A DNA stretch of 63,677 nt, counting the filler, from Kipferlia bialata (taxonomy: Eukaryota), in assembly GCA_003568945.1 (NCBI GenBank). It is 6 parts of 6 records of this genome, joined end to end, with 100 filler letters (N's around TTAATTAATTAA, not from the genome) between each part and the next. Parts side by side here need not be neighbours in the genome. Positions count along the whole stretch, not along the records: positions 1 to 12,185 come from BDIP01001121.1; 5 more parts are not named here. One strand, written 5' to 3'. Shown here piece by piece: positions 1,472-55,795 of the stretch (position 1 is its first letter; the number at the start of each line of letters is the position of its first letter). The position numbers were made by a program, and so were the translations under genes. The notes under the pieces are model-generated. The model was given only the letters and a program-made list of their open reading frames with translations. It made no database searches and was not told the DNA's origin.

Positions 1472-4400
1472 ATGGGTGCCGGATGTTCTGCCGCACAGGA
1501 TGTGGGCAGTCCCTCCCTTGCTGTCCAGGGTATACCCCATAACATACAGGTGGCCACCCCCATATCCCCAGCCTCCAATCCAATGTTCCCAGATGGGGCA
1601 GGGAAGATGACGTCGTCGCAGAGCAGTGTGTCCCAAGGAGGTAGGGGCGGGTCCCCCCTCGCCTCTGCCCAGCCCCCACCTGCTGGGGAGACAGACACCC
1701 CCACTCCTGCCGGTGTACTAGCCGCAGACACCCTATCAGTGGAGGAGAAGGCAGCTAGGCTCAAGGCAGCCAGGAAGGCCAAGGCCAAGAAGCCGAGCTC
1801 CCAGATACAGGCCGCCCTCCCCCCTCCGTCTGGTCCGACCCCCATGGCCAAGGGGGCAGTACCCAAGGCTAAGCATAAACCAGCCAACACAGGCCAGGGC
1901 GAGGGAATGTCAGCCGAGTGGAGGTTCAGGCGGCTGGACACGACTGTCAAGGAGCGCGTTGCCTCTCCCATCACTGTCCGCCCCACCAAGACCCCCACCT
2001 TCTCCCTGTCCTCCCCGTGCACTGTGTCCTCTACACTGACGGCAGAGGGAGGGGGGACAGACCCAGAGAAGCCGTCATTCTGGTCAAACCACATGTACAT
2101 GATAGAGGTAGGGGATGTGCTATTTATAGTTTACGAAGCCATTGTGCGAGTTACTCCTCTGATTGTACAGTTGTGTATGTATTATCACCTTCTATGTAAG
2201 CCCCCCACCCCAGGCCACCCCCTCTTCCACCGTGACTGTGCATGTGACCCAGCACCAGCAGTGGGGGGACAGGCAGGGCATCAGGCTGTTTGCATACGCC
2301 CACACCTCCACCACCCTGCCCTCCCCTGTATATGCAGAGTCACACGCCCTGCCACCCCCCTCTGCCCTGCTTGCCTCCACCCCATCCTCCATGAACCCCC
2401 TCTCCCTCCCCATCCCCATGCCCAAGAGAGATGAGGCATCCAGTGTGTTGTTGATAGTGGCCAGAAAGGAGGGGGGGGAGGCAGAGTACGAACTCTCTGT
2501 CACAGACCCTATGGTCACTATTACACACTACAAACTGCCCCCAATGGTGTCGAAGGTACGTACATGCAATGTTATATTCATGCATCTGTGCCATATTCAG
2601 TGTGGGAAAGATTCGGTTTGGCAGTGATATTGATACACTACCTTCTTTAGATTACCATCACGTCCCCCTCGATATCCCTCACCCTGTAGGCCAGTGCCCT
2701 CTCCCTCCCCATAGTGGGTGAGGCCGAGGGTGTGTGGGAGGGGATGTCAGCTGCTGGGCCTGGGTCCAACTGGAGAGACAACCCCACGCACCTGTTCTCT
2801 CTCAGTGCCCCACAGCTGGTGACCCTCACCTACACACGCTATGCCTCGCCCTTCGCCCCCTCCTCCCTCTACCTCTTCAGACTCCACCCCCACTCAGACC
2901 CCTTCCCAGAGGGGGCACTCGAGGACGAGGCGGGCCTGGTGCTCCACCTGGGCAGGTACCATTACATGTATATGTGTAACTACCCACATGTATATATGTA
3001 TCCATTATCATCCTCCCCTGACCCCCAGCAGCAGTGCTCCTGAGACCCACCGACTGTGGCTGCAGGGGGGTGACTACCGCATCGTGTGCATAGCCAAGGA
3101 GGCAGGTCTCTCAGCCAGGTTCGGTCTGTGCCTCAGGGCCCCTCTGCCCCTCTCTAGCCCTCTGGTGGAGAGGCCCAGGCCTGGCATGGGTGCTGTCCAC
3201 ACCTATCATGCCAATGGGACGTGGGAGGGGGGACTCTCTGGGGGAGACAGAGTGGAGGGAGACGCCTCCTGTGGGTTCTTCCGCAGTCCCACCTGGTCCT
3301 GGACGGCCAAGGGGTCAACCAAGGTCAATGCCACACTCTCTGTACCTGATGGTTCCCCCCGTGTCACCTGTCAGCTGTACATCTTGTCTGTCCCTGAGGG
3401 TGCAGAGCCATGTGTGTCCACTGCCGCTGTCTCTGGTGTGTCCAATGCCACGAGCATAGGCCTTGCCAGGCTCTCTGCCACACTGCATGCTGGGACACAC
3501 TACCTAGTGGCCAATACAGTGAGGCTGGGTGCCACCGGTAGGTACCAGCTCAAGGTGACGGCTGAGACAGAGGGAGAGTACACAGACCCCACCCCCGTCC
3601 CATCCACACACACCACGGCATTCCACCCCATACCCCCAATGCAGTACACAGGACCCGTGGCATGCTACAAGGGAGAGTGGACCGAGAGTGAGACAGAGTC
3701 TGCAGGGGAGAGGCTCACCCTCCGCAACTCCCTGCCCACCCCTGTGACTGTCAGGGCCTGTGTCCTGAGGGGCAAGGCCTTCAACACAGTCAGAGTGAGT
3801 GTGTATGCAGTGGTTAAGAGCGAGAGTGGGGTGGGTGAGGTCCTTGCTAGAGGCGCAGAGAGCTCCTTCCCCGGCCTCTCCTCCTGCGTCGTGTCCATCC
3901 CCCCCTCCTGTGCTGTGGTGGTTGATGCTGCCAACACAGGGGATGGGAAGGGCATGGCCAGAAGGGAAGGGGACTTCAGGTGCTGTGTACAGTTCAAGAC
4001 AAAGGCTGACAAGGACGGGGTGAGGGTCAGCAGGTCTGGATCCCTCGAGGGTCTGCCAGGTGAGACCCTGCCCTACCCCCAGCCCGTCTCTGCCCTTGTG
4101 ACCCACCCTGCTGTGGGTGATGTACTCAAGGGGGTCAAGGGGGAGATAGGGGTTGGCCTGGATATGGGTGTGGCCCCCCTCGCTGTGTATGGAGAGGATG
4201 CCTTTGCCATACTGACTGGAGGTGTGGGGGAGTATGTGCAGGACCAGTCGGAGGTCAGAGAGAGGTGAGTATGTTATGGTGTGTTCTCCCATGTTGAGAT
4301 ATATCAAGTGCATACTCAGTGTCTCACCCTATAGGTGGTGCCAGCGACTGAGGCAGCAGGCCAGGGAGGAGAGAGCACCTGCAGACACAGCCAGTGCAGT

Positions 4401-7055
4401 CGTGGCTGGGGTGGAGAGAGGGGCCCTCAGGCTCATGGTGCTAGGTACATAGTATATACTATACTATACTCACTGTACAACATAGTACCACAACCCCTAC
4501 CCTGACCCCAGGTGGAATTGGCGTGCTCTCCCCCTCCGAGGCCTCTCTCGGTGTGTACAGACCCCTCCTTCTCAACATGGTGCGGTGGGTGGGGGGTAAG
4601 GTGGAGGGGGACCACCAGTGTATGGTGGCAGGGGCGGTACCAAAGGTAGGGGGGTGTTCCTGCTGTATGTAATTGTATACTCATTGCTTGCTATATGGCA
4701 TGTCTCTGCCCCACCCTCACCCCCAGTCCCTCAAGGCATGTCTGTCTGCCAAGACATCCTTCTCCGCCAGTGTCAAGTCATCCCTAAAGAAGTGGGGGGT
4801 GCATGAGGGGGTGGTCCTGCTGGCCATGTCGCCCAAGGACGCACTCGACAGGTGGCACTATACATAAAGAATATATATTTATGATACGTACGACACTTCA
4901 ATTCTGACCCCCAGCAAGGTTCTCGCTGCCCTCTCCTCCCGTCTGTCTGCCTCCCTCCCTACTATACTGTGTGCCCCTTATATGGCCTGGAGTGCGGCAG
5001 AGACCACCAGACGCGGCACACCCCCCTTCCCCTTCACATTCCCTGTCAACAGGGTGCTGTCTGAGTACGGAGTAGCATACACAGCTGGCAGTGTGGCCCC
5101 TACCTCTGGTCCCCTAGACACAGACACCCTGGCCGCTGACCCCTCCTTCGACCCCACCTCCCACGAGGCATGGTACAAGGGGGCTAGGGCATCTACACCC
5201 ATGGGTCTGAGGGTAGAGAGGTCACTGCCTGCCCTAGCCCATGCGGCACACTGTCTCACCCAGCTGTCTACAGTGCTGGATGCACACACAGACACACGCA
5301 GCATGGAGAGCCTCGGTGCCACCCTCTCCCAGGCCATACTAGCTGTGGACCCTGCCTCAACCTATCTGCAGCGGGTTAAGGAGACACTAGGTGCAGGGGA
5401 GGTGCTGGTCAGTAAGGACACCCCTGTACCTAGATCCAACACCCTAGGCAGACTATCCCTATTGGTACAGGCAGCTGAGGCCAGGGGTGTGACACACCTG
5501 GCACAGACAGCTGTCACAGAGGGTGCAGAGGATGTACCCACACACTCTGAGGCACCGACAGCTGGGGTGTTCCCAGGGGGTGTAGGGGAGGCAGAGGGGG
5601 AGAGCAACATCATAGTCTCTCTGCCCATCCCGGCCTATCCCTGTAGGTACAACAGGGCAGAGGCAGGGACACCCGGTAAGGGTAAGGGTAGACCCACCAA
5701 GTCCAGGAGCCCAGTCAAGTGCTGGCTGTCGACCGGTCTCTATGTCCCTGCTGGTGTGTGTGTAACTGTCACTCTGCCCCAGTGGGTGGTGGATGCAGGT
5801 GGTACATCCAAGCACCCCCACAAGGACTGTGTCTCTGTGAGGGTGGGGTGCCATCCCGATGATATGTACCACACACAGACCAAGGACATGCACAGGTAAT
5901 GGTAATAACATCTGTGGATATAGCGGTGTTGTGTGATATACATGTCTCACCCCCAGGTTCCCTCTGGACCTGTGCACTGTCACATTCCCAGGCCCCTCTC
6001 GCAAGGTTACCGTCTCCTCTCCATTTGGCGGCCCTCTCTACCTCGCCCTCCCCCCCACCCCCTCCCCGGCCTTCCTCTCCAAGTGCACACAGACCATGGA
6101 CGTGTCAGTGTCTGGGGCCATCCAGATGCCCACCTTCACCCCGGCCCAACCCACCTCCTCCCCCTCCCCCAAGGCAGGGGTCTGGTCGGTCTCCCTCACG
6201 CACGGCCCACCCATAGCTGAGCTGGTGGGTAGTAGGTGCATCATCACTGCCCCTGTCCACAAGCTGGCAGAGGTGGACGTGTCCATGCTGTTATTGACCC
6301 TGGACTCTGCAATAGGGGGTCAGGAGGGGTTAATGGCTAGGCGTATGTGTGAGGGTGGGTGGAACAGACCCGAGAGAGTGGTCTTTGACCTGGACACTGT
6401 TGTGGGTGTTGCACATGCTGGGTACCCCATCGTGGCGCAGTACCCTGTCCTCTCTGCCCTCCAGTCACCAGACGCGATGGTAGCATCTGCCATCCCACAC
6501 GAGCTGGGCCACAACATACAGCACCCAGTCATATCCTGGCTGGGTATGGTGGAGGGAGGGGCAGAGCTCATGCGTACATACACCATGGACACTCTGGGAG
6601 CGGCAGTCACTGCTGCCAAGAGAGGCTTTGGCGGCCTAGGTGCAGAGACTGAGAGGCAGTGGCTGGCCTCTGACTACGCGATGAGGGCGGTTAAGCTAGC
6701 CTGCATGGCCCTGTCTGACTCTGCCTCCCCCACCCCCTACAGGGAGAGCACCTTTCTGGCTGACACACACCTGGGCCTGGGTCTGCTGCTGATGCTGCAG
6801 AGGGACTACGGCTGGGGGTACTTCACAAGGCTGGTCAGGGCCGTGGCTGCGGCAGAGGCTGAGCCTGGCACCCCCACTCTGCATGGTGCAGATGCCTTCT
6901 GTGTGCATGGGTCTACAGTGGCAGGGGTGTCCATCCTGCCTGTGCTGGAGGGTGTGGGTGTGCATGTCAGTCAGGGTGCCAAGGATGCAGTCAAGGGGAT
7001 GGGACTCGAGGAGTGGTCACCCTCCATGTATCAGGATGACGCATGGACAAAGTGA
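1472..7055 (+). CDS. Putative N-myristoylated/palmitoylated protein: 3-4 calpain domain-III-like repeats fused to a TCAF/FAM115-like M60 zinc metallopeptidase (9 exons, ~1642 aa)
   Basis: Exons 1472-2107, 2214-2555, 2690-2955, 3029-4264, 4335-4444, 4512-4645, 4727-4851, 4915-5895, 5957-7055 join in frame (4929 nt). N-terminus MGAGCS. Calpain-III-like motifs: GGGTDPEKPSFWSNHMY, GVWEGMSAAG..WRDNPTH, NGTWEGG..FFRSPTW, LHAGTHYLVANT..GATGRYQLKV. TCAF-like motifs: PLAVYGEDAFAIL, PLLLNMVRW, FTFPVNRV, WLSTGLYVPAG, VRVGCHPDD, SSPFGGPLYL, HAGYPI, HELGH..E. Confidence 0.85.
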
Positions 7056-7719
7056 TTGACAGTATGAGACAGTGTGTGTGTGTGTGTTGTATACTATGTT
7101 CTCTGTATCTATTCGTGTGTAGTGTGCTATGCGTGTGTTGTCAAGTGGTCTGCATGTCTTCCCATGTGGGGAAGGATGGTATTAGCTAACTAATAGAACC
7201 ACTAAGACATGTGAGTCTCTCTCTGTCGTCACCCACTGAAGCATTCCTCTATCGGAGGTATTACCCCCAATTCTCGTGTTGGAATGCGCATGACCAGTGT
7301 CCAAACAGACACAGGGTATCCTGATGCAGTCTGGTGTGGTATGTTCAACCACATGTTTAGACCGGACTTGTGTCACTGGAAGCACCTTGGAACGATCAAC
7401 ACCATCAATTGCCACTTCGCAAAGAGACCAACTAAGGAAACTGCAACTTGTGCCTCAGAACTAAAGCGGACAAAGCGTATCGTGGCGAGACTGATGTCTT
7501 CTCTGAGACTCCCAATCAGAATCGGATATCTGCGAGATAGACACTTGCATCTACCCAATAGGGTTTCCTGATACGACGCTACACTTGCATGGTTCTCTGT
7601 CAGAGTTAGGGGAGTCTTCACGCTCACCGGGTGGAACGGCGCTAGGTTACAAGATCTGGCAGCACATACTGTACTGACAACGTACTAACTGTACAATGAT
7701 CCAGCTACTCATGTCGGGC

Positions 7720-10700
7720 TCAGGAGACCTCTCCTATGGTAGCATAGCCCCCCTCCCCCCCCTCACTGTCTGACCCATCATAGAACACTGGCACCCCCTC
7801 TCCCAGTACATCATAGGTCGATGTGTACCTCTCCCAGTCTGTGTCAGTCTCTCCCATTGGTGAGTATCCTCTGACCCTATCCTCCAGGGTGGGTAAGGTA
7901 CCACACACATCCAGCACAGGTGGGGGCATGGGTAGTGGGGACACGGCACCCACCTTGGAGAGTGCTGCTATCTCAGCAGACACCTCCCCCCTGTCTCCCT
8001 CTCTCTTAGGTAGTGCCAGACCCAGGGTAACAGGCAGGTCACGGTAGGCATTGTTGGAGTTGGCCCTGGGGGTGTTAGGCATGGTAGAGGCCATGCACTA
8101 TCTACACAATACCCTTCCTTCATCTCCATACCTTAGGAACAGGTCGAACAGCTCCTGTCCCGGCATCTCCTCCTGTGTCATGTCCCCCCCACTCCCTCTG
8201 AACTGCACCCTCCTGGCATACCTATGGCTGATGGTGTGCAGGGTGCCGTGGGAGCCTGGGGGATAAGAAAATGGGTAATTCATCGCTATACATACACAAA
8301 CCAACAATACAACACACAACACATGGTGCCATAGGAGCCTAGGGTTATCAGTATACAACTATTATACACTGTAACGACACACTGCCAATATAGAAACTGG
8401 ATATCATGTGCACGGTTCCGGGGGTCACATATATATCATTACACCCAAGTATGCTCTATACCACATTGTACAGTGAGGTTATGTATATATCCATCAGATG
8501 GAACCCACCCCCGACTGCCATGGATGCCCTGAGCACAGACTCCAGGCTGTCACGGGTGGCAGGTCTGGGGGTGAGGTCTCACGATACATCGTCACTGTCT
8601 GTGCGTATTGCTATAACAATGACCTACTGGGCTAGTATCAAAACAGTATACATACAATTGTTCCCCCGCCTGTTTGTCCTGACCTACTATTATAACAATG
8701 TATACATACCACACATCGAACCTGTCTGTCCTGACTGGTATGGGCACCATGGCCGATATCCCCAGGGGGTCACACAGAGAGGGGGGCCTGGGGTGGGAGA
8801 GACACACAACAATAGAAGACATGGTATCTACGAGACTAGCAGTCTCTGTCTGTACCTACTCCCCGCTGTCTGTGCACTGTCCATGGGCACTGACCCATAC
8901 TGCACTAGGTCGGAGGGGCAGATGGTACACGTCCTGGGCATCAGAGCCATGACTGGTACGTGTACAGGGGTTGACGACAGGAGTACATAGTACTGATGTG
9001 ATGATACTGGTACCTAGCAGATGCCGGCCCCGCTGCCCCCTCAGGTGGACATGATGTGTGCAGGGCGTCCTCCTGTTGGGCAGTCATGTCCCAGAGGGGT
9101 GTGGAGACAGGGGCTGAGACAGGTAAGGGGGCACCCCATGCGTCTGTGGGGTAGGGCTGAGGGGAGACACTCTCTGACACTGTAGACTCAGTGGTATGGG
9201 TGTCATAGGAGGGTATGGGAGGGGACACCTCACTCTGGGTATCGTCCTTGCCTAGCCACTCTCTCCCTCTCTCCACCCCTCTCCCTATGTCCCTCCTCAG
9301 TGACTCTAGACTCCACCTCTCCTCGGGGGGTAGCTGGTCATCGCCAACTCCTGGGGTTGGTGCAGGTTGAGGCATATCGACACTACCAAGACTATATATT
9401 ACAGGCCCATATACATCCCCACCTGTGACTATGTCCAGTGCACACTGTCTGTGTGCATCGGTGAGTGTGTTTGAGATGTATCTATGCACAGACGTGATGG
9501 CACGCACAGGGGCAGACACACGCATGATACCAGCCTGCAATGTGAGGCATCATTCTACATAGATGTATACACGCATACACTCAAACACACCTTGTCCCCG
9601 TGTGCATTGAGACATCACTGTACACTGTACATAGATATGCACAGTGTAATTACCCCCTCTCACCTTGTCCCCGTGTGCATTGCTACCCCCATACTGCAGC
9701 CCCACACTGTTCCCTGCCTCTATCAGCATAGTGAGCACACTCAGCCTCAGCTCACTCTCCTCATGGGGACATGCCAGGCCCAGACACTCCATCTGGTGGC
9801 CAAAGGCTGCAGCCAACACCCTGCCCTGCATCGCATTGGTCCTGACATGAGGGGTATGCAAGTACAGTATACAATGTATACTATACATACAGTAGACTAC
9901 TACTACTCACCTATCGATGCAGTCTATACAGTTCACCCTGACTATGCCTGTCTGTCTAGAGGACACGTGGAGAACGGGGGTAGGGTGTGTACTACCCCCA
10001 TTACTACAATGCTGTGTGGTACCCAGGGTGGCTGAGAATACACCTGTGGGGACGAAGAAGGCGCTGGCCTGATGTTAAGGACAAGAGTCACAAGAGAGAT
10101 CCTAAGACAATACCCCACCTGACTAGTGAGTGTCTGAGCTGCCACTCCCCTCCCCCTCTCTCTCTTGGCCAGGGCTGAGTAGTCAATGTGCACATAGGAG
10201 ACAGGGAGACCTGGTCCCTTGGCAGGAGAGACACCTTCCTCCGTCCCTCTGTCTATATCTGTGAGGGGGTGGGTGTACCCAGCAGACAGCACAGCTATCT
10301 ATGGGGTTAGGGGGTTAAATAACCAGAGAATATAGGTCTACCAGAGTAGACGCTACGGTATGCCACCCACCTTGTATGCCGTGGACAGAGGCTGTTCCCT
10401 GCCATTGGCCTTGCATAGATCCAGACACAGAGTGGAGCCATAGCGGAGGGTCAGGGCTGGGGTCAGTCAGGAAACAGCAACTCAGAGTTAGAACGAGGCT
10501 CATAAACGCACCCTTCAAGTGTCTTCTGCACAGATCGAGACTGGGTTGCACTGGTCCTATCACTATGGCAGGCCTAACCGTGGTGAGGGAAGATGGCTCC
10601 TGGTGCCACCTCAGGGGGATACTGCCCCTTAAGGAGTCAGAGGCAGAGTGTGAAACTACACGATAGTTACACAGTGTAATACACTAGCCTACCTGCATAT

Positions 10701-12185: not shown

Positions 12186-12285
12186 NNNNNNNNNNNNNNN
12201 NNNNNNNNNNNNNNNNNNNNNNNNNNNNNTTAATTAATTAANNNNNNNNNNNNNNNNNNNNNNNNNNNNNNNNNNNNNNNNNNNN
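12186..12285. other. Artificial contig linker N44-TTAATTAATTAA-N44
   Basis: Identical 100-bp spacer with stops in all six frames, recurring at five positions; contig lengths descend (12185, 12181, 12180, 12177, 12168). Confidence 0.99.
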
Positions 12286-35229: not shown

Positions 35230-36682
35230 CTACAGTGTAGTGAATGATGCACTCTTCCCCTTCTGTCTGGCAGCAGGCACCACCGCCACCCCCATGTCCC
35301 TGGAGGGGTGTCTGGGGTTGAACTCGGGGCAGTCTCTGCCGATGTGCCCCACCCTGTGGCAGTTGTGGCATATCCTATCCTCAGGTAACCCGTCCCCCCT
35401 CAGCTGCCTCTCCCTCCTAGGCTCAGGGCACCCCTTGGCAGTGTGACCGGGCATCCCACAGTTGTAGCAGGTCGGCTCCCCCTCGTAGCGAGGCTTCCTC
35501 TTCCTAACCCTCACCTCAGATGTGTCCCTGTTGGGGTGTACAGGGTTGTACTCGGGGCAGTCCCTCCCAATGTGGCCGGGCTCCCCACAGTTGTAGCACA
35601 CCCTAGACCCGGTGTTGGAGTGCTTGCCCACGTTGGGGAGGGGGCAGTCCCTACCAATGTGGCCAACCTCCTGGGGTCAGAGAGACAGAGAGAGAGGAGG
35701 AGAAAGATACTGATATCATGTGACACTAACTAAATAACATACCCCACAGTTGTAGCATATGCGGTCGTCAGTGTCAGAGCCACTGTCGGAGAGGGCCAGG
35801 CGCTCCTTCTTCTTAGCCTTACTCTTCCTGTCCTTTCTGGGCTCGGTGCACTCGCGGGCGTTGTGACCGGTCTTGCCACACCTGCACAGTGAGGGAGGGG
35901 GGGATATGGGGTAAACATAACATACACAGTAGGTGACAAGGGGCACAAGATATAGGACACAAACAAAAGAGAGTGTCAGTCACACCCACCTGAAACAGGC
36001 AGGCTCAGAGCTCACGCTCTGCTCTGCCCTCTGTACCTGGCCAATCACACGGTCTAGGGCAGAGAGGGAGGGGCCTGATCCCTGCACAGTGAGGCATAGA
36101 TGAGAGGCATAGATGAGACTGTGGTAGAGGGTGTGTGTCTCTAGGTCGTCGGTACCTTTCCCAAGGGGGTCCTGACCTCTGCACTATCGGTCTCGGTCTG
36201 CACCCTGTTCCTAGTAGAGGTGGGCCTGGGGTGGCTAGAGACAGCCTTGGCCTTGGTCTGTGTGCCAGGTCCATGGGACACAAGGACAGGGCTGAGGGAG
36301 GACCACTGGAGGTCAGAGAGGGACAGGGATGGAGACTATATGCACATCAGGGTATCTATAGTAGGGTCGAAATACCAAGAGAGAGACACACTAATATGTA
36401 TATACACTCACCTTGTCTACAACGGGTGGCTGGACACTCTTGGGCTTCTGCGCGGGCTGAACACTCTTAGGCTCAGCCTTCTTGGTAGGCTTCGGCCTAG
36501 GCTTGGCCTTAGTCGTGGGGGCCTCAGCTACCTTGGCTACCTTGGTAGGCACTGTCGGCACCACAGGCTGTGTCTGAACAGGGGTAGGGACATACTGGGT
36601 ATGTACTGCACCCTGGGGGCCATATGCATGATGACTCTGCACTGGTACAGGAACCATAGGGGGTGCAGCAGTGGCCACAAGC
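35230..36682 (-). CDS. CCHC zinc-knuckle nucleic-acid-binding protein (5 knuckles, CNBP/Gis2-like), 5' end missing
   Basis: CFR|CGKTGHNAREC, CYNCG|EVGHIGRDC, CYNCGEPGHIGRDC, CYNCGMPGHTAKGC, CHNCHRVGHIGRDC, after a Pro/Lys-rich region. Introns split two of the knuckles. Confidence 0.9.
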
Positions 36683-36981: not shown

Positions 36982-38487
36982 TCTGCAGCCAGGTCGTGCT
37001 GAATGCGCACCAGGAACTTGTTGTCAAGACCTGGGAATTAAGGGTGTAGAGATGAAAAACGCTATGTTACAGGGAATAGAGGTACTATTTAGTAAATAGT
37101 ATTTACAGGGTGAAGATACACAACTAAAGGGTGCAGAGATGAACACTAGGAGCTCTTCATATATACATATATATATATATACTTCTGCCTATATATGTAA
37201 TAGTGACTATATATGACAATACCTGGGTGCTCCACATCGTGACTGGCAGCTGCAAAGTATATATATATAAATATATACATCTTGATAGACTTATATATAT
37301 AACTACTAACTATATACATATATATATGTGTGTATATATACCTGGGTGCTCCACGTCGTGACTGGCAGCTGCCAGGATGAGGGCCAGGAGCTCAAGGTCA
37401 CCAAACACATGCCTATGGTTGGCAATATTATATACATGCATAGAGTATATATATACACTATGGATATATACTATGGATGAGGGCCAAGAGCTCAAGGTCG
37501 CCAAAGGCATGCCTATGGCTAAGTGATTGTATAAAGAGATAACAGTGTTGAAATAGAGGACATGCGTTTCGCTGGTAGACCCTAAAGTATACATACTTGT
37601 TGCTATATAATACATATACATCTCACTGATACCTGTTCTTGGCTAGCATTGTCCTGGCCATGCAGACACACCTGGAGAATAAGGGTGCAGAGGGGGAGAG
37701 AATGAGAATGAGATAGAGATAGAGAGAGAGAGAGAGAGCACTCACATGTGGCAGACGTCTGTGGCGTGGGTCGAGTTGTGGTATATACATATACGATATA
37801 TGCACCTGTAAGTATATGTATAAATATGTACATATACATCTTACTCACATGTGGCAGACGTCTGTGGCGTGGGTCGAGTTGTGGTATGTGTTGCAGCTGC
37901 TGTAGGCGGCCTGGGGTGAGAGATACATAGCATATATATANNNNNNNNNNNNNNNNNNNNNNNNNNNNNNNNNNNNNNNNNNNNNNNNNNNNNNNNNNNN
38001 NNNNNNNNNNNNNNNNNNNNNNNNNNNNNNNNNNNNNNNNNNNNNNNNNNNNNNNNNNNNNNNNNNNNNNNNNNNNNNNNNNNNNNNNNNNNNNNNNNNN
38101 NNNNNNNNNNNNNNNNNNNNNTATATATACAGTATCATGTGTTGCAGCTGCTGTAGGCGGCCTGGGGTGGGAAAGAATAGAATATAGTAATACACTATAA
38201 ATATCCATACAATACAATGATTGATATAGATAGACATACCAGCATAGCGGTACACTAGGAACCACATCTGGGACTATTATGAAACACACACCTACATATA
38301 TGGAGGATACATATATATATATAGATATACAGTACCCTACCTGCATTGTGGACACCACATAGATATATAGATATATATATATATATATATACTTTATTAT
38401 ACTATAATTAATACACACACTATATATATGGAGGATACATATACAAATATATATACAGTGCCCTACCTGCATTGTGGACATTTACAG

Positions 38488-38519
<32 letters not shown>

Positions 38520-41500
38520 TATACATACCTGCATTGTGGACACCAGGTACCACATCTGGGACCTGCTGATGTGGAGCCTGTGGATTAAGGGTGCAGATAC
38601 ATGTATATCTATATATATATGTATATATATAGAGAGAGAGAGAACGAAGAGACCTGCTGATGTGGAGCCTGGGGGGTAAGGATAGAGAGGGAGAGATATT
38701 ATTAGTCAGTAACATAGTTATAGCTTTAATACATCGGTGATAACACTTACCGCTCATACAGCTTCATCTCGTGCATGGCACTGTCCACCAGGGTGGGCAG
38801 GGCAAGGAAGGAGGCAGCTCTGATATAAGATGGTATATGCAGTATATATACATATATATATTTGAAGAGAGAGAGAGAGAGAGAGAGGTAGACACCAGGG
38901 TGGGCAGGGCAAGGAAGGAGGCAGCCCTGGGGTGAGGTACACATACTATTTACTACTCAGGGTGTGAGAGAGAGAAAGATATATATATGTATAACGGTCA
39001 AGACGAGGAGGTGTCTCTACACAGACTAGGAATACTAGTGATATACAATAGTTCATATACTAACCTAGGATACCCCGCTATCTCCCCCGTGTTCTCCTTG
39101 GCATCAGAGTCTCTCTCTCTCTCTGCCAGTACTATATAGTATATAACAATTTATATATATAGTTTATATATACAATCAAGTACCTAGGATACCCCGCTAT
39201 CTCCCCCGTGTTCTCCTTGGCATCTGGTGGGAAGGTCTTGAATACATCAAAGTCGGCATTCCATACAAGCTGATATTAAGGGTGTAGAGGGAGAGAGAGA
39301 GAGTAGTTCTTGAAGACAACAAGTCAGCATTCCACACAAGCTGGGTATTAGGGGTGTAGAGGGAGAGAGAGCGAGAGAGAGAGAGTGAGAGAGAATAGTT
39401 CTTGAAGACATCAAACTCAGCATTCCAGACAAGGTGGTATTATGGTACTATAATATCGTACTATAACACTATAAGAATAAATATACAATGTATAGAGTAC
39501 ATATCCGTCGCTCAAAGGGTCTTTTTGGCATTCGGTACACAGTGACATATACTACATATATCCATACGTAGTATACACTATGACACTACATGCTATATAA
39601 TGATAACAATATATACAACATATACATCCATACCTCTACCCCTATGGGTCTCTTTGGCATTGGGTACACAGTGGTATATATATTATACATTGTATAGTAT
39701 GTTTGTATATATATTTACTATACACAAAATAGATAATGTGTACTATACCTCGATGGGTCTCTTTGGCATTGGGTACACAGTAGTATATAATGTATCTTCT
39801 TCTCATATATATATACATACATCAATAGAGGTATACATATATATATATATATATACCCATACCTCAATAGGTCTCTTTGGCATTTGGTACACAGTGACGG
39901 TGACATGTACTATATACATGTACAATATATATTGTACGGTATACATATAAACCTATTTATATATTGAATAGTCTCCATACCTCAATAGGTCTCTTTGGCA
40001 TTGGGTACACAGTGATGGGAGGGGAAGGGGGGAACACCTCATTGCTAGGGGTCAGAGAACATCTACTATCTACAAACTGACACTGCGGTATAATAGACTG
40101 TCATCTCTCACTCACTCACCCTATTGCCGCCGCCCTCTCCCTGGCCTCATCCTCTGTCTCCACGCATAACACATAACTCATACTAAATACTGCATATAAT
40201 ATAAGTATATATACTATTGATTAAGACTAATGCTACATACCCAATGGCAGCCGCCCTCTCTCTAGCCTCGTCCTCTGTCTCCACTCATAACACAAACCAC
40301 ATACTAAATACTGCATATAATATATGTATATATACTATTGATTAAGACTAATACTCCATACCCTATTGCAGCTGCTCTCTCCCGTGCCTCGTCTTCTGTC
40401 TCCACTCGGCTCAGGGTGCAGTGGGCCTCCTTACGGGGGCCCTAATAGTAAGTAATTGTCGTTATTACACTACCCTATGTATATAGATATACTGTGTGTG
40501 CTACTAGATTGAGGGTGCAGTGGGCCTCCTTGCGGGGGCCCTAAGAGTCAACTATAGGTGTTGTGCTTATACAATCAATTATATAATAGAATTATAATAT
40601 GTATGATATTATAGAATTACAATATGTATATTATTGAGCTCAGGGTGCAGTGGGCATCCTTACGGGGTCCCTAACGGTCAAACAGAGTAAGAAGATCCCA
40701 AAATGTAGGGTTATAGTGTAGCACAACTATATATATATGTACCTGCCATCCGGATAATGGGTTAGCATATTCACATACATGTACATATAATTCAAATGTA
40801 TGATATAATTAATGTCTAATGAATATTTATATATATGAATATATATATATAATAAATATATATGTATATGTGTACCTGTCATCCCGAGAATATGTCGTAC
40901 TAAGTATAGTTGTGGTTATCATATATATATATATGTACAAAAATGTAATTAGTATAATAATTAATATAATAGTAAATTCATATTTACATATATATACATA
41001 TAATTACCTGCCATCCCGAGAATATGTCGAGCATCAGGTCCTTGTCAATGCCTGAAATAAGGTCCAGCAGTCAACTAAAGGGTCTAGTGAATATAGTATG
41101 GTAGCCTGAAATAAGGGTGTAGTCGCCAACAAAAGGGTCTAGTAAATGCAAGAAGAGTGAAGAGTGAAGAGTGAAAGCATATACCTGAGCGTGCTATGGC
41201 CTTGTCTCTCTCCCTCTGCCTCTCTCTCTCCCTCTCGTGGCTGGGGGTAAGCAAACACCAATTTATCCATTTCATGGCATGTATACTAGGTCACTTATGA
41301 GGAATAGATATGCCAATCATATATAGATACCCCAATCAAGGCATATAGAGGTGTATACTCACCGCATTCTGGGCACGATGTCAGGTGCTGTGTTTGTGTC
41401 ATTGGCATCTCTCGAGTCACGCACACCCAGGAGAAGGTCACGGCCTGATGTAAGAACTATATGTATATATAGAATACAACATAAACCATAGTATAGGGGT

Positions 41501-42741
41501 GTGAATTGGCATCCCAGCAGGAGGGCACTGCCTGATGTGAATATATAATCAATGTATTTACCATAGTGATACAAGGTCTATACAAATATTGAAGTGGTTG
41601 GATACCCAGTTGTGCATACGAGTTGACCATGAAGTGCGCCACCTCATATATAATACATACACATATGTATAACATATACATACTTATATATACTTATATT
41701 TATTAGACACAGTACCTGTTGGCTCTATACTGACTACTGGTTGGATATCCAGCTGTGCATATGAGTTGACCATGAAGTGTGCCACCTCAAGTGCCTCTCG
41801 GTCAGGCTTAGAGAGACCAATGATCCTGCTTATTAGAGAATAGAGTTGGTACGTCATCATCATCATTCATAGTGGAGTATATAAGTAGAGCCTCTCGGTC
41901 AGGCTTAGAGAGGCAAATGATCCTGATAGTAACATACTATTAGTAAGGGTGTAGCAGAGATGAATAAAGGGTGTAGCAGGTATGTGTCATGGCTTGGAGA
42001 GGCCAATGTTCCTGAGGGTATAGCGTGGGTATATATATCAAAGGTTTGGACATGGTGGTAAATATACATGTACAATATGGAGTACCTGTATCTCTCACTG
42101 TTGACCATGTTATCCAGGGTATCCATCTATACGTATACTATATACTATAGCATATATATATATATATATTACATACCATGTATATATATAGTACCTGTAT
42201 CTCTCACTGTTGACCATGTTGTCTAGGGTGTCCATATACACATACTATATACTATAGCATATATATATAAATGTATACCATGTATATATACTATATATGT
42301 ACCTGTATCTCTCACTGTTGACCATGTTGTCCAGGGTATCTAGGATAGATACAACGGGGAGGCCAGTCTTCCTACGCAGAACCTGGGGTTAGAGATATAG
42401 TTAGGAATATATGAACATATATACTCGGTATCTAGGATGGACACAACGGGGAGGCCAGTCTTGCGACGGAGTACCTTAGTATAAGAGGACTTATATATAT
42501 ATACACACACACACATATATATATACACACAGAGAGAGAGAGGGAGATGCGCCAACGGGCAGACCGGTCTAGGTCTTGCGACGCAGGACCTGGAGTAAGG
42601 TATATATACAGGTATATATAAATCCATATATGCTAGTAACATGTTCATCTTCATATAAAATTCACTCACTCACCTGATTCACCCCGTCCATGACCACATC
42701 CTGCAGGGGGGTATATATATATACATACATACACTATACTG

Positions 42742-42772
<31 letters not shown>

Positions 42773-44240
42773 CTATACCTGATTCACCCCGTCCATGACC
42801 ACATCCTGCAGGGGGTTATATACAGTAAATACATATACTAATATATATATATATATATTATGCATATTATGTATATAATACATGAGTATACCTGGTTCAC
42901 CCCGTCCATCACTACATCCTGCAGGGGGTGGACAAACCTCCTCATCTGGGAACCCCTGGTATAAGGGCAATACTCAGAATGAATGGGGGTACATCGATAC
43001 AAGTGTAGTATTAAACTGTATAGAATATCATAGTTCTTTTCAAATAATTATGGGATTAGACTCATGCAAAGAGTGACGACAGCAAAAATGAGAGTCAGGG
43101 TTGTACCTCCAGTGCCACAGCTTGCTGAACATGTCAAAGGACCTGGACATGCATAAATATATTATATAACTATATACAATAATAATGTATATATATATGT
43201 ATGATGTAGTCTAATAGTTAAGGGTATAGACTCCTACCTCCAGTGCCACAGTTTGCTGAACATGTCAAAGGACCTGGACATGTGGTCTATGCCATACAGG
43301 AGGTCAACGATGACATAGAACCTGAGGGATAAGAGGGTGTAGAGAGAGAGAGCATGTGGTCAATGCCATAGAGGAGGTCGACGATGACATAGAACCTGAG
43401 AGATAAAAGGGTGTAGAGAGAGAGAGAGAGAGATGTGGTCTATGTCATACAGGAGGTCAACGATGACATAGAACCTAGAGATTAGCATACAAGAACATTC
43501 ATATTATTATATATTATTAGAGAGAGAGAGAGAGAGAGAGAGAAACCTGCTCTATACCTGCTTGAGTAGAACTGCCTCAGGGTATGCTTCTCGAGCTGGG
43601 CAAGGACCTCCTATAGATAAGAGACACAATACAATTATGCTTGCACAGTGTTAACTATCTGACAACATTACTAAACATGTACTTATGACTATATACGTAA
43701 GATGCAATTATTGTAGGTATCATACATAAATATGCATGTTGTGGAAGTGTACACACCTCTTCGACTGCCTCAAACACAGCCATACTATCTCTAACACTAG
43801 TGTAAAAGAACAAACATACAGCCACCCACACATATACTAGTTTGTATACACTGATATACACATATCCTACCTCCTCGACTGCCTCAAACACAGTCACGGC
43901 CTCAGAGGTCATCCTGGCCTGGTATGAGATAGTGTATAGAGTGATACATATCTAATACACTATACTATCCAAATACATCTACACAACAGCCTCAATAATT
44001 ATTATGTAAATATATATATATACTATATAGTCACGGCCTCAGAGGTCATCCTGACCTGGGGGTTAGATTAAAGAGTATAATTGAATAGATGTATATGCTA
44101 CATTTACATACTACAGACATATACACCCACCTTTAAGTCGGGTATCATCCTAGGCACCTTGGTCACACAATCATATCCAAGTCTATCTATACTATATGGA
44201 TACATACATATTTACTATGCTAGTATTCTTCTTTATCAAT

Positions 44241-44278
<38 letters not shown>

Positions 44279-45340
44279 GTCATAATACCTTCAAGTCCGG
44301 TATCATCCTGGGCACTTTGGCCACACAATCATATCCAAGTATATCTATCTACAACTATATATATATATAGATATATACATATTTTATATGGATACATACA
44401 CATACTGTGCAAAAATACCTTCAGGTCTGGTATCATCCTGGGCACCTTGGTCACACCCCCAATGTGGATACGGTTCTGGAGTGTTAGCTAGAAGAACACG
44501 AGGTCATGGATCCACTTGTATACTCTCAACCATGTACACATAACAATGTGTTTGGAAAGACAGAAGTAGCTCTATATGTATGTACGTCAAACGTGTATAC
44601 CTTCAACCCCGCATTACAGTATGCTACCCCAGATATATACATACACAGATTCTTGATGCATACAATTATCAAGATTCAATACTACATACTTAATACATAC
44701 TATATTATAACTAAATACCTTCAACCCTGCATTTTACACATATATATATATATATATATATACATATATATACATATATACCTTCAACCCCGCATTGCAG
44801 TATGCTGCCCCCAGGTAGGTGAGACCACACCGGCACTTGGCAAGGGCAGCCTGAATATAAGGGTGTAGAGGGAGAGAGAGACAGGGAGAGAGAGAGAATC
44901 ACTAGACACCTGGCAAGGGCAGCCTGGCAATAAGGGTGTAGAGGGAGAGAGAGAGAATTACTAGACACTTGGCAAGGGCAGCCTGGGATAAAGGGTGTAG
45001 AGGGAGAGAGAGAGAGAGATGACTCTCACCTTTGGGAAATACAACTGCCCCAAAGACATGTAATAGAGAGATAGTATACTATAGTATACACACCCTCGAG
45101 ACCTCTATGACTGGGGCATCATCGTGGGAGTGTAGGTACCTGGAATAAGGGTGTAGTATCTATTAAGGGTGTAGGTACCTGGAATGAGGGTGTGGACGAA
45201 GGGAACAAGGATGTAGTCTGTGTACAAGTACAATAATACGTGCAAATACAATATGAATATGTGAGGGTACTCTCTATGCAATACAACACGTACTGTGCAA
45301 ATATGGTGCATGCCAGTCAGTCTCTCTCTATATATATGAC

Positions 45341-45380
<40 letters not shown>

Positions 45381-48300
45381 AATATATAGGAATACGTACT
45401 GTGCAAATATGGTGCATGCCAGTCTGTTGGGGTCCACCTCAGTGTCCTTGGTGTCCACTTGCTGGGATGAGGAATAAAGGCACAATGGGTAGCACCTATA
45501 TATGTATTGGTACATTGTACAATTCTAGTATAACTTATGCATAACAACCTCAGTATCCTTGGTGTCCACTTGCTGGGATAAGGCTATATTAGGCAGGGAA
45601 CTACTCCAATGTCATTACAAGTGACTATTATAGTATGACTTATGTACTACTTACATATATACATAGTCGTACCCGTCTGTACTCCAGTGTTGCATTCAGG
45701 AACTCCATGCTCAGCCTGGCCTTGGGGTTGCCCTACAGTCAATGAAGTAAGCAGTGATACTAGACCTAGTATTGTAATAATGGACATATTCAAGAGAATT
45801 TTTACTACATAACATTGTCGTGATTGTTCACAGGCCCTTTTACCTGTCTTCTGACGACTAGATTGACTGTTAAACTACATGTCTTCTGACGAACAGAGCA
45901 AAGAGGTCATAATGAATACTATACAAGGATATATACCTATTATAGACGCATATATATATAAATATATATCCAATATACCTGTCTTCTGACGAACAAAGCA
46001 AAGAGGTCATAATGAATAGTACATAACGATTCTACATATATACATATATTTAGTATAATTATATATAATACACTATTGTATATATATAAATATTTTGTAA
46101 AATTATATATAATACACTAATGTAGTACCTGTCTTCTGACGAACAGGGCAAAGAGGTCGTAATGAATTTCTACATTACGATTCTACATAATACACTCGTA
46201 TATATATATTTAGTAAAAATATATATAATACACTAATGTATATATATATATATTTAGTAAAATTATATATAATACACTAATGGGTTACCTGTCTTCTGAC
46301 AAACAGGGCAAAGAGGTCGTGTCCATGGACAATCTCAAAGAGACCATTGAGGGTGCCTGTGGGAAAACAACAGTAAACAAATGAAATACATATGAATATA
46401 TGAATGTCTATCAGTGTACTACGCAATGAAAGATATCTCAAACAGGCCATTGAGGGTGCCTAGTGATTAAGGGTGTAGAGTGTGTGAGAGAGAGAACAAT
46501 ACAACCTCAAACAGACCATTGAGGGTGCCTGTGAGATAAGGGTGTAGAGGGAGAGAGAGAGGGGGACAGAAACTACACCACCATATAGATGAAAGTGAAT
46601 ATATCGAATATATAATGCTAACCAATACACCACGCAACAAAAGAGTACCTGGCACATTGGTTGTCAGTACCAGCGGGTGCACAAACGCGAGTACAATGAT
46701 GATGCCACTGTTGCCAAGTACAGCAGACCAGATGACACCGCAATATGCCTTAGAGTCAGTATGTATAGAAACACACATATGTATATACATATATATACAT
46801 ATGTTAATGAGTGTATATATATGTACAAGTGATTATGCCACTGTTGCCAAGTACAGCAGACCATATCACTCCACAATAGGCCTAGACGTAAGTAGATATC
46901 TTATATATAAACTAGATATATATCCAAATAGAGTATTCTAATCCAACACTCACCTGAGGCGTGACATGCATTGACACATGTAATTATATGGATACTAATA
47001 TATACATATACTTACATATGTATATATGTACTGACCTTACATGAATACTTATATACACATATACTTATATATGTATATATATACTGACCTGGGGTGTGAC
47101 ATGCTGCAGAAAGGCGTGGTACACATAGTACACAATGGCAGTGCGGGCAAGGGCAACAAGGGCAAAGACAAGCCAGTATAGGCTGAACCTGGAATAAGGG
47201 TGTAGAAGGAGAGAGAGAGAGAGAGAGTAAGGGCAACAAGGGCAAAGACAAGCCAATACAGACTGAACCTGGAATGAGGGTGTAGAAGGAGAGAGAGAGA
47301 GAGAGAGAGCAGGGGCAACAAGGGCAAAGACAAGCCAGTAAAGGCTGAACCTGGAATAAGGGGGTAGAAAGAGGAAGAGAGAGACTGTCTCACGCACTGG
47401 AGAGTTAGGGGTGTAGGGGAGGAGAAAAGGGTGTAGGGAGGGAGAGAAATGGGGGTCAATGTATATATATACCTGCTTCGAGAGACTCCTCATCATCACA
47501 GTCTCTCTCTCTCCCTCTCATCTATCTCCTCTGTGTATAGATATGTGTAAACATACACACACATATATATATACCTTCTTCTAAAGACTCCTCCTCCTCT
47601 GTGTCACTGGAGAACTCCATATCACCATAGCAGTGCTTAGTATAAGGGGTCTCCTGAGGTTAAGCATATGTGTGACAGTGTATAGAGAGAGAGAGAGAGA
47701 AGGATGGGAACTCCATGCCTGCATAGCAGTGCTTAGTATAGGGGATCTCCTGAGGTTGGATTGTACACTATACTCCCTAGTATACGTCTATCTAATTAAT
47801 AAATACTAGTAATACAATCATTAATACTATTTACTCCATACCTGTATAGTGATGGGGTCGTTGATGATACTATATATGTGTGGGAATCTATATACATGTA
47901 TGATATACATGCTATTATGCTCCTTACCTGAATAGTGATGGGGTCGTTGATGGCTGTGTTGGTCATAGAGCCATACTGGGATGAGTTAGGGATAAGAACA
48001 CTAATCTTTGTAATAATAGTACTCTAATTTCTATACAATGAGAAAGAGACACATATCATTGTATAAACATAGGAACACCAATCATAGTATGAACGTATAC
48101 AGAGAGAGAGAGACATAAAGAGAAGATGATACTACTTCCAGATGTCCTTCACTCACCTCATCCTCCTGAGTATATGTTGTTTGCATATAGGTATATATAT
48201 ACACATATGCACATATACCTCATCCTCCGAGTATATGTTGTCACAATATATGTAAATACATATATATACACATATATATATATACCTCATCCTCCGAGTA

Positions 48301-48989
48301 TATGTTGTCACTCCATGGCTCAGAGGTGTCTGTGCCCTCAAACCCATGGATACCAGACTGGACCTGGAATAAGGGTGTAGAAGGGGAATATAAGGGTGTA
48401 GAAAGGGAGGTACGGGTGAAGGTGGGGAACATGAAGCAAGAAGAAACTCACAATTTGTGTGAGTACTTAGTATACATATGATGTATTCACATTAAGTACA
48501 TACCAGAAGTCCACAGAGGTATGCATTACACTACATTGTATTCATATACATTACATAATAAATTAACTATAGAGAGGTATACCTCTGCCCCCCTTGCGAA
48601 GCAGAGGAAAAAGGGTGTAGATAGATGTATATATATATATATACTAATATATATATACATAAACATGGGTATACATACTCATATATATACACTCATATAT
48701 ACATATTCATGTATACATACCTCTGCCCCCCTTGCGAAGACATCGATATACTCCACAAGTAGTCAATATGTATACATATATAGATATATACACCTATATG
48801 TATATATACTCATATATATATACCTCTGCCCCCCTTGCGAAGTACATTTATACATATAAATGCAATAGAGAGTAAAGCAACTACGTATGACACTATTGAT
48901 ATACTCCAGTGGCGCATAAAAGTATATAGTATTACCTCTGCCCCCCTTGCGAAGCGTCCTGTCAACAGGAAGTCAGGGGAGTACACGAC
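36982..48989 (-). CDS. Class I cyclic-nucleotide phosphodiesterase with upstream transmembrane segments and an RGS-like domain; about 30 exons, both ends missing
   Basis: PDE motifs WNADFDVF, YHNSTHATDVCH and LELLALILAAASHDVEHPG|LDNKFLV. RGS-like exons at ~46356-43557. Hydrophobic exons FSLYWLVFALVALARTAIVYYVY and AYCGVIWSAVLGNSGIIIVLAFVHP. Phases fit across the RGS exons and the intervening exons read open; one phase conflict near 47400. Confidence 0.85.
40120..40405 (-). repeat. 121-bp-period exon-end echo array (VETEDEARERAAAIG|GT x3)
   Basis: Copies at 40362-40405 (true exon end), 40241-40284 and 40120-40163. Confidence 0.95.
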
Positions 48990-49023
48990 CTGGGGTGAAT
49001 ATAAATATATATATATGTAAATT

Positions 49024-49123
49024 NNNNNNNNNNNNNNNNNNNNNNNNNNNNNNNNNNNNNNNNNNNNTTAATTAATTAANNNNNNNNNNNNNNNNNNNNN
49101 NNNNNNNNNNNNNNNNNNNNNNN
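49024..49123. other. Artificial contig linker
   Basis: N44-TTAATTAATTAA-N44. Confidence 0.99.
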
Positions 49124-49175
<52 letters not shown>

Positions 49176-49725
49176 GTAGATATAGTAGATATATACTACA
49201 CCGCGGTATATCTGGCCATGAATGGTGTGTATATAGAGATGGTATGTATATAGAGATGGTATGTATATTGAGATGGTATGTATATAGGGTTGGTATGTAC
49301 ATATTGTGACAGATACATATGTATTCTACGGAGTCTGCCCAGCTACTGCTGTGTCAAATTCGTATATATATTGGAATTACATATATAGCCTAGAGGGGAC
49401 TATTTTCACATAACTATGGTTAGCAAGTATTTCTCGTATAGACACGACATCCCCCGAACTCCACTCTGCCCAGCTAATATATATTAGGAATAATTATGTA
49501 TAAGTGTTTATATATTCTATGTATTACTATATATAGCATATATATGTATATATGTATATATGTATTCACTTTCTCACTACAGACACCACAGCCCCAGGGT
49601 TCCACTCTGCCCAGCTAATAAGTATTATTATATATATTAATACATTAATAGTGTTTAAAAAAAATACACTATCTATATATATATATGGAATAATTATGTA
49701 TCAATATACTCTATTCTCACTATAG

Positions 49726-51527
49726 ACACCACAGCCCCAGGGTTCCACTCTGCACAGATGCACAGCGTCCTCTACAGAGCTCTGAGTCGGAAGGACCCCA
49801 ACCCTGTTACCATAGAGGTATTATACATTATTAGTGCTTATTCATTGTATATATGTATTATATTTCTTATAGTATATAGTATATAGTATATATAGTATAT
49901 ATATATATATAACCCTGTTACCATAGAGGTATTATACAATATAGTGTGATATACACTATACATGTATATGTACACACCATCGTGTACAGTGGTCTAAGTC
50001 GGAGTGACACCGAGTCAGATATATATATCCCTTTCTTCTTATTTGTAATTATGTAATATGTAATAGATTTCTTTCTTCTTATTTGTAATTATTCTATCCA
50101 TTTTCTAATTGTTTCATTTTTAATAAGAGTCCAATGTATATGATACCCATTGATGTCTGAGTTTACTCTCACTACCCCTTTTCATGCGGGGTGACACCTA
50201 GATGACCTTAGTCTACTGCTGTTCTCTTCATGAATACCTCGGAGTAGAATTACTTACTTACCATAAGTTACAGTTTACATTACATTCAATTACCCAAAGT
50301 TATCGGGATTTTTACCGTTTTTACCATAATTTACCTCAGTCTGTAGCCGTTCTCTTCGTCATTGCAGAGAACGACATAGAGGGAGGTACGGTGTACTACT
50401 ATTACTATTATATAGTACATGTATATAGTATTATACCTCACCCCCAGATCTCTCTAATCGACTTGCCATGTTGCCTCTCTTTGTGACTGCCCTACAGACA
50501 AAGCTGAGGGAGGAGGACCCAATCAGAAAGTGTGGGATGACATATTCCATATATATATATATATATATAGTTATTGGTACAAAGTATATATGTGTTCTAC
50601 AGACAAAGCTGAGGGAGGAGGACCCAATCAGAATATATATATATATATATATATATACATAAGCATTATTGTTCATGGATAGTGTTTTCAAACTCAACGT
50701 ACTTGGATACATCACATACATCACCTATCGTTTGACTATCTAAGTATGTATATATATGTATATTTATAGATATACAATTTCATATATAGTGCATATATCT
50801 AAGTGCATATATAAATACTCACCCCCAGACTCATCCATCTCATTCTGTTGGCACTGGTCAACGCCATTTGTGGAGGTATGAATTTCTCTATCTCTCTCTC
50901 TCTCGTTATCCAATATTATCCTCATACTCTATCATGTTTAGCCCAATGCAAAACAGAATTATTAATTAATATCAATCTGTAAGTTAAGAATACTTTAAGC
51001 TAAGAAGTCTTGCCCGTCCACCAGTTGTATGGTTATATGCATGCAAGTATTGAACGGCTTCTGTGGAACGCTACAGTACTAAGAGACGTACAGTATGAAT
51101 CTATATATCATATCCACACTCTGATTCCAGCACACGCAGCTACATATATATATATAAATGTATACTAATTTACCTGAGAAATATACATACATGCACGTAT
51201 ATACCTGATATATATATAATAAATATATGTGAATATACTGACATACATATACACCTGTTCTTATACCAGCACATGCAGCGACTGCCCTTAGGCTTGGTGC
51301 TCACACACTAGGTATGTGTACTTGGTATATATATATATATAGATAGATAGATAGATATATGTGTCAATAAATAAGGATATATATATTTATATATCAACAA
51401 TCATGTGTACTATATCGGCCCTCACCTCCTCGTTTGACATATACATATGTATTACTCTATACATATATAGCATGAGTGGTAGTCTGTTCTCATACCCTAG
51501 CGATGGACGCCGTGGCCAGGTTCTCCT

Positions 51528-51561
<34 letters not shown>

Positions 51562-52283: not shown

Positions 52284-52315
<32 letters not shown>

Positions 52316-52946: not shown

Positions 52947-52979
<33 letters not shown>

Positions 52980-53938: not shown

Positions 53939-54012
<74 letters not shown>

Positions 54013-54697: not shown

Positions 54698-54730
<33 letters not shown>

Positions 54731-55298: not shown

Positions 55299-55335
<37 letters not shown>

Positions 55336-55757: not shown

Positions 55758-55795
<38 letters not shown>

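Follow-up and report, generated by a model that had tools for sequence, protein, structure and literature searches.

What would a zinc metallopeptidase of the M60 type be doing behind a row of beta-sandwiches whose closest structural relatives may be a domain of calpains? This question is raised by KIPB_004987, a gene of Kipferlia bialata at positions 1472-7055 (plus strand, as are all coordinates of the gene below) of the window, by which we mean the whole stretch of DNA analyzed, 63,677 nucleotides (nt) made by joining parts of the genome. K. bialata is a free-living flagellate of the fornicates, and its draft genome, according to the accessible part of the genome paper, was annotated by AUGUSTUS with transcriptome hints [PMC5874029]. 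The gene product of 1642 amino acids (aa) is P0001 in our searches and GIQ83636.1 at NCBI. Public databases thus already contain the gene, with annotation limited to its M60 part: the UniRef name is 'Peptidase M60 domain-containing protein'. We conclude that KIPB_004987 is neither a calpain nor a new kind of system; it is a rare domain combination among TCAF/M60-like peptidases. We postulate a cytosolic, catalytically competent M60 zinc metallopeptidase of the TCAF type, held at a membrane by an N-terminal myristate and palmitate, a reading to which we give an even chance.

A TCAF-like M60 region with an intact zinc motif

Pfam found exactly two families in the whole of KIPB_004987. M60-like_N (PF17291; aa 1217-1309, positions 5714-6053, with intron 8 inside) scored 27.6 bits against a cut-off of 23, and lies directly before Peptidase_M60 (PF13402; aa 1362-1600, positions 6210-6926), which scored 45.8 bits against a cut-off of 25.8 and 50.1 bits when exon 9 was searched alone. 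The sole HExxH in the protein is HELGH (aa 1458-1462, positions 6498-6512), and Glu1476 (6552-6554), 14 residues past the second histidine, is the predicted third zinc ligand. This putative zinc site (HELGH-x13-E, positions 6498-6554) fits the gluzincin pattern HEXXHX(8,24)E, by which M60-like domains are defined in the part of the M60 paper drawn on here [PMC3267712].

The closest named relatives of this region are TCAF proteins. A word-indexed search with aa 770-1642 gave a bird TCAF2 as the sole match other than the protein itself (E 3e-14), BLASTP aligned aa 1220-1466 with TCAF2 residues 536-757 at 32% identity, and hhalign matched aa 1220-1620 to TCAF2 with a probability of 99.6. The zinc motifs align, reading HELGH...E in TCAF2 and HEIAH...E in P0003, a metagenome homologue described below. 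Among PDB sequences, the only relevant match of a two-sequence profile (A1) was the M60-like mucinase SslE/AcfD (E 0.0027), and exon 9 alone gave chance matches only (E 0.6-0.8). The original prediction of a TCAF-like region with HELGH-x13-E is therefore upheld by Pfam, by the comparison with TCAF2 and by the single HExxH. Catalytic competence is predicted from the motif.

The region between the sandwiches and the M60 domains (aa ~765-1216, positions 4077-5713, with introns 4-7 inside) is possibly TCAF_N/TCAF_helical-like. Its neighbors by ESM features are TCAF_N and TCAF_helical clusters (0.85-0.86), which we treat as a lead only, and a 30-column FxFPxN...G motif is common to it and to both N-terminal halves of TCAF2 (hhalign E 0.023 and 0.18). 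The Pfam copy that we used reported neither TCAF_N (PF27016) nor TCAF_helical (PF27027), even on TCAF2 itself.

Predicted beta-sandwiches possibly related in fold to calpain domain III

In the models, aa ~166-752 are all-beta, and we divided this part into four units: repeat 1 (a putative beta-sandwich, aa ~166-322, positions 1967-2543, with intron 1 inside), repeat 2 (likewise putative, aa ~333-456, positions 2708-3152, with intron 3 inside), repeat 3 (a predicted jelly-roll beta-sandwich, aa ~470-600, positions 3192-3584) and repeat 4 (a predicted calpain-domain-III-like beta-sandwich, aa ~622-752, positions 3648-4040). Sequence signals between the units are weak. No internal repeat emerged at E ≤ 10 when aa 130-780 were compared with themselves by BLASTP, and in Smith-Waterman comparisons of the six possible pairs only repeats 2 and 3 scored above shuffled sequences (z 2.8; 3 of 200 shuffles reach the score). 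With hhalign, repeat 1 aligned to repeat 2 (E 0.005) and to repeat 3 (E 0.029), both alignments being long and in register, and the remaining four pairs gave E values of 0.058-0.19. We infer that repeats 1 and 2 belong to the same type as repeats 3 and 4, which would make four sandwiches.

The fold comparisons point toward calpains. The model of repeat 4 (aa 612-760) is usable, with a predicted local distance difference test score (pLDDT) of 69.3 and a predicted TM-score of 0.67. Its first seven Foldseek rows are all calpains, as are nine of the top 12, the best being 1qxp_A (E 6.1e-06, TMq 0.59), and VIA-align ranks domain III of 1qxp_B first. For repeat 3, for which the model is poor, VIA-align puts the C2-like domain of calpain-7 first. 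By these rankings two of the four units find their best structural match in calpain domain III, and repeats 3 and 4 are predicted to fold as jelly-roll sandwiches closest to that domain (C2L/CBSW). In the models this match does not stand clear of a few related jelly-rolls: the Tk-SP C-domain and YPM tie with it within 1 Z. The repeat models also show a structural resemblance to an unnamed chain of the central pair, 7n6g_6M; otherwise the analysis offered no support for the flagellar membrane face that had been proposed as one location.

At the level of sequence the likeness is fainter. The third unit of P0003 (aa 322-458) matches positions 2-131 of the 137 in Pfam Calpain_III, with 16.7 bits and E 0.0093, and by ESM features aa 327-765 have clusters of Calpain_III as neighbors (0.86, with 165 and 163 of the 256 features), again a lead only. 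A word-indexed homologue search with exon 4 and with aa 140-770 returned only KIPB_004987 itself. As judged from sequence, homology to calpain domain III is below every threshold. Thus, of the three to four calpain-III-like repeats originally proposed, the fold supports repeats 3 and 4, and neither Pfam Calpain_III nor BLASTP repeat detection adds to this. The calpain cysteine-protease core, said at the outset to be missing, is indeed not detected: Peptidase_C2 (CysPc, PF00648) had no match at E ≤ 10 in the whole protein or in any exon. Because no such core was found, we do not file KIPB_004987 as a calpain.

N-terminus, linker and predicted location

N-myristoylation and palmitoylation follow a consensus of Gly2, a small third residue, Ser or Thr as the sixth and a cysteine close by. 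The first six residues of KIPB_004987, MGAGCS (positions 1472-1489), agree with it in Gly2, the small residue that follows, Ser6 and the neighboring Cys5, and this N-terminus is likely to suit N-myristoylation followed by palmitoylation. A low-complexity linker follows (aa 7-165, positions 1490-1966), which includes the basic stretch EEKAARLKAARKAKAKKP and is missing in P0003. Over aa 1-165 the composition is 16% A, 12% P, 11% S, 10% G and 7% K, and the net charge is +8. Both the MGAGCS start and the disordered linker had been proposed from the DNA, and both hold: an in-frame TAA stands just upstream of the start, an RNA contig begins at 1403, and the linker is low in complexity and rich in A, P, S, G and K.

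In the hydropathy profile of the whole protein we found neither a signal peptide nor a convincing transmembrane segment. The N-terminus lacks hydrophobic character, and the highest 19-residue Kyte-Doolittle mean (1.61) falls in a proline-containing beta region. KIPB_004987 is predicted to be cytosolic because of these two properties.

A homologue with the same architecture

With exon 4 as query, a full HMMER (phmmer) scan against 1.84 billion representatives gave 10 matches at E ≤ 0.001: KIPB_004987 itself, P0003, seven bacterial PPC-domain proteins (P0004-P0010) and one 145-aa bacterial protein without a Pfam family. P0003 is a 'hypothetical protein' of 1512 aa from a JGI/IMG metagenome (phmmer E 4.9e-18). 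It is colinear with aa 168-1550 of KIPB_004987 at 29% identity (E 1e-120), and it is without the linker and without Gly2. The HExxH and glutamate are kept between these two proteins, which suggests selection on the metal site.

All seven PPC proteins have partial matches to Pfam Calpain_III (profile ~103-136), located on PPC-type hairpins. A C-terminal 'G-x-Y ... Y/F-x-L' hairpin is therefore common to PPC domains and calpain domain III, and it can mislead short matches.

As far as sequence searches indicate, the architecture is rare, the whole of it being found in one other protein among the 1.84 billion representatives, in keeping with the initial impression that it was unfamiliar. Scans of metagenome contigs and genome contigs confirmed no relative. 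In the open-access literature searched, we found no description of a Calpain_III-M60 fusion and nothing on TCAF1 as an M60 peptidase.

Gene model and transcript

The coding sequence has nine exons (1472-2107, 2214-2555, 2690-2955, 3029-4264, 4335-4444, 4512-4645, 4727-4851, 4915-5895 and 5957-7055) and ends in the stop codon TGA at 7053-7055. We set the exon-intron joints by manual reading of the junctions. The reading frame is uninterrupted for 1642 codons over all junctions, all eight introns are GT-AG, and they are 61-134 nt long and higher in AT than the exons. The accessible part of the genome paper counts 124,912 GU-AG introns in the draft genome [PMC5874029]. The product of the model is identical in every letter to GIQ83636.1, 'hypothetical protein KIPB_004987 [Kipferlia bialata]'.

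The gene model is real and the gene is expressed. A public sequencing run (X1), the record of which does not state RNA and the contigs of which are spliced, contains 88% of the words sampled from the stretch. Its contigs skip all eight introns at the exact predicted GT..AG borders (106, 134, 73, 70, 67, 81, 63 and 61 nt). A single 7216-nt contig links exons 4 through 9, so that one assembled molecule carries both repeat and M60 sequence and the transcript is not split at 4265-4334. Exons 1 and 2 are on a separate contig that begins at 1403, placing a 5' untranslated region at 1403-1471; the in-frame TAA at 1466-1468 makes the ATG at 1472 the start within exon 1. The joints of introns 2 and 3 are supported by 27-nt overhangs only. 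The in-frame nine-exon model and the single transcript across 4264-4335, both part of the original prediction, are accordingly confirmed, the former by the deposited protein and the skipped introns and the latter by the spliced intron 4265-4334 and the contig over exons 4-9.

A 191-nt X1 contig (2527-2717) reads through intron 2, for which intron retention, unspliced RNA or DNA carry-over could be the explanation. Introns 2-8 (seven of the eight) have the element CTSAC 5-7 nt before the acceptor AG, as CTCACCCCCAG or CTGACCCCCAG; examples are at 2675-2689, 3014-3028, 4320-4334 and 5942-5956. The element has the appearance of a branch point merged with the 3' splice site and is reminiscent of the motif conserved at the 3' end of introns in Giardia and Trichomonas.

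A proposed function and its alternatives

We postulate that Gly2 would receive myristate and Cys5 palmitate, and that the basic linker would aid membrane binding. The four sandwiches would serve both as a stiff spacer and as modules that bind partners or the membrane, and they would hold out the TCAF-like peptidase toward substrates on the cytosolic side of a membrane, as domain III does for the calpain core. A stronger version, in which a calpain-type sandwich scaffold has become detached from the cysteine-protease core and coupled to an active zinc peptidase, lipid-anchored and cytosolic, we consider doubtful. The original prediction had been of a calpain-like scaffold with a membrane-anchored zinc protease; what stands of it is the M60 motif and a calpain likeness at the level of fold, and what does not is Pfam Calpain_III, which stays below threshold.

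Several observations weigh against the reading that we prefer. The fold models of exon 4 and of repeat 4 each derive from a two-sequence alignment with P0003. The exon 4 model (aa 416-826, AlphaFold2) is poor, with a mean pLDDT of 45.5, and Foldseek matched it to unspecific tandem jelly-rolls (TM ~0.2). Pfam Calpain_III (PF01067) has no match in KIPB_004987 at E ≤ 10, in the whole protein or in exons, and the P0003 score of 16.7 bits is under the gathering cut-off of 21. Among PDB sequences, exon 4 alone had 0 matches at E ≤ 10, hence no calpain, and the A1 profile found no calpain at E ≤ 10. Repeats 1, 2 and 4 show no significant likeness to one another in sequence. The acyl motif is not kept in P0003, which starts MAACPTTE and has no linker, so that acylation appears not to be conserved; this start comes from gene calling on a metagenome and could be misplaced. 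Vertebrate TCAF2 also retains HELGH...E, and the accessible part of the TCAF paper describes channel binding and no proteolysis [PMC4284226]; an intact motif is therefore no proof of catalysis.

The sandwiches could instead be generic jelly-rolls of the PPC, carbohydrate-binding or galactose-binding-like kind, with a calpain likeness that reflects only the superfamily fold, and the M60 domain could be a glycoprotease that acts on glycoproteins. Bacterial M60-like glycoproteases carry jelly-roll accessory modules with which they hold on to their substrates, whether glycans or proteins, and seven of the ten phmmer matches are the bacterial PPC-domain proteins. Carbohydrate-binding modules often accompany M60-like domains, according to the portion of the M60 paper used [PMC3267712]. 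We nevertheless think this alternative unlikely. KIPB_004987 has no signal peptide or transmembrane segment. In the Foldseek comparison of repeat 4, calpains have E values of 6e-06 to 9e-04, whereas a PPC domain (5sv5) comes at rank 40 with E 2.8e-03. P0003 matches the full Calpain_III profile and has no PPC match at E ≤ 0.01. The matches to P0004-P0010, which also form part of the case against calpain homology, are limited to query residues 132-193, the last C-terminal hairpin. Alternatively, the protein could be a non-catalytic TCAF-like adaptor that binds cytosolic parts of a channel or other membrane protein and steers its trafficking, with a zinc motif that is structural only. Vertebrate TCAF2 is the nearest named relative (32% identity over aa 1220-1466) and itself retains the motif, and both TCAF1 and TCAF2 attach to TRPM8 at its cytosolic tails and favor its delivery to the cell surface, as reported in the accessible text [PMC4284226]. 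However, HExxH and the glutamate are conserved at 29% overall identity, as if under selection, and the TCAF_N likeness is weak (E 0.023 over 30 columns); we regard an adaptor role as rather improbable. We know of no channel partner in Kipferlia.

It is also conceivable that an N-terminal repeat gene was fused in annotation to a separate, neighboring M60 gene. None of the X1 contigs listed covers all nine exons, and the joints of introns 2 and 3 have the short overhangs noted above. Yet the 7216-nt contig joins exon 4, with repeats 3 and 4, through to the M60 domain in exon 9, the frame runs on across every junction, and P0003 is a single protein colinear over both parts. On the strength of the contig and of colinear P0003 we reject a two-gene artefact, which we consider extremely improbable.

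Comparison with known systems

If the stronger version, which we consider doubtful, is true, the TCAF family would have begun as membrane-associated intracellular proteases, with the vertebrate channel regulators as derived descendants. To our knowledge, TCAF proteins have been described only in vertebrates, as partners of channels, and TRPM8 is a partner confined to animals. TCAF1 and TCAF2 (FAM115A/C) resemble KIPB_004987 in their C-terminal M60-like_N and Peptidase_M60 domains, in the retained HELGH...E (TCAF2) and in a middle region with TCAF_N-like ESM features (a lead only). They also have no signal peptide, and they act on cytosolic channel tails; the accessible part of the TCAF paper describes no enzymatic role for their M60 domain [PMC4284226]. 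In contrast, TCAFs are without the beta-sandwich array, the long linker and the MG start, and KIPB_004987 is ~700 aa longer, with only the weak TCAF_N match already mentioned.

The M60-like glycoproteases (BT4244, SslE/AcfD and those of Trichomonas), as described in the part of the literature drawn on here, share with KIPB_004987 PF13402, HEXXHX(8,24)E and an HSGYP-type motif. They too have accessory beta-sandwich modules N-terminal to the peptidase. Secreted or surface M60-like proteins have signal peptides, lipoprotein signals or transmembrane anchors together with carbohydrate-binding modules, according to the same partial source [PMC3267712], whereas KIPB_004987 has none of the signals, anchors or modules described there and is predicted to be cytosolic.

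The domain III of calpains (C2L/CBSW, or the tandem C2-like domains of calpain-7/PalB) is the best structural match of repeats 3 and 4 and can likewise occur in tandem. By eye, the repeats have a 'G-x-W ... G-x-Y-x-hydrophobic ... F/Y-x-L' pattern, which we take to be that of calpain domain III as well. KIPB_004987 differs from calpains in having no CysPc core and a Calpain_III likeness below the Pfam threshold, and in position: four putative copies stand N-terminal to a metallopeptidase, whereas in calpains the sandwich is C-terminal to a cysteine peptidase. In the accessible text of a calpain survey, all 41 architectures are defined by CysPc, no CysPc is reported in Giardia, and 'metallo' occurs 0 times, with no metallopeptidase partner [PMC3563603].

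The kinetoplastids offer a parallel for the N-terminus, as they have dual-acylated proteins, including HASPB, the calpain-like CAP5.5 and SKCRPs, that carry MG...C...S-type N-termini on a cytosolic calpain-related scaffold. HASPB of Leishmania is reportedly acylated at Gly2 and Cys5. These proteins differ from KIPB_004987 in lineage and in their domains, and the motif is not kept in P0003.

A TCAF-like M60 protein with a conserved zinc site in a deep-branching, free-living metamonad could provide a tractable test of ancestral intracellular proteolysis. Likewise, calpain-type sandwiches without the calpain core would be informative about the independent role of domain III, such as the binding of membranes or partners. 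The case is limited to two family members, with homology below sequence thresholds and functions that are predicted.

Surroundings in the window

A convergent gene on the minus strand, with at least 17 introns (CT..AC on the plus strand), extends from 7056 (~7.1 kb) to at least 12149 (~12.15 kb). Its 3' end and that of the M60 gene abut or overlap (~7056-8064), as judged from the fact that both are on the one unstranded 7216-nt contig. The open reading frames (ORFs) of the convergent gene had no Pfam match. A tblastn search of the window with P0001 found no paralogue, only the gene itself. Runs of N from near 12230 (~12230-12241) were read as scaffold gaps.

The other 89 ORFs of at least 110 aa in the window include only two with Pfam matches at E ≤ 1e-4. 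One has two zf-CCHC zinc knuckles (35233-35676, minus strand, E 7e-23). The other is an exon-sized fragment of a 3'5'-cyclic nucleotide phosphodiesterase (PDEase_I; 37313-37642, minus strand), with an E value of 3.5e-05, just under the cut-off. An AT-rich block spans 37000-57000, where GC is 28-43%, compared with 55-62% over the M60 gene.

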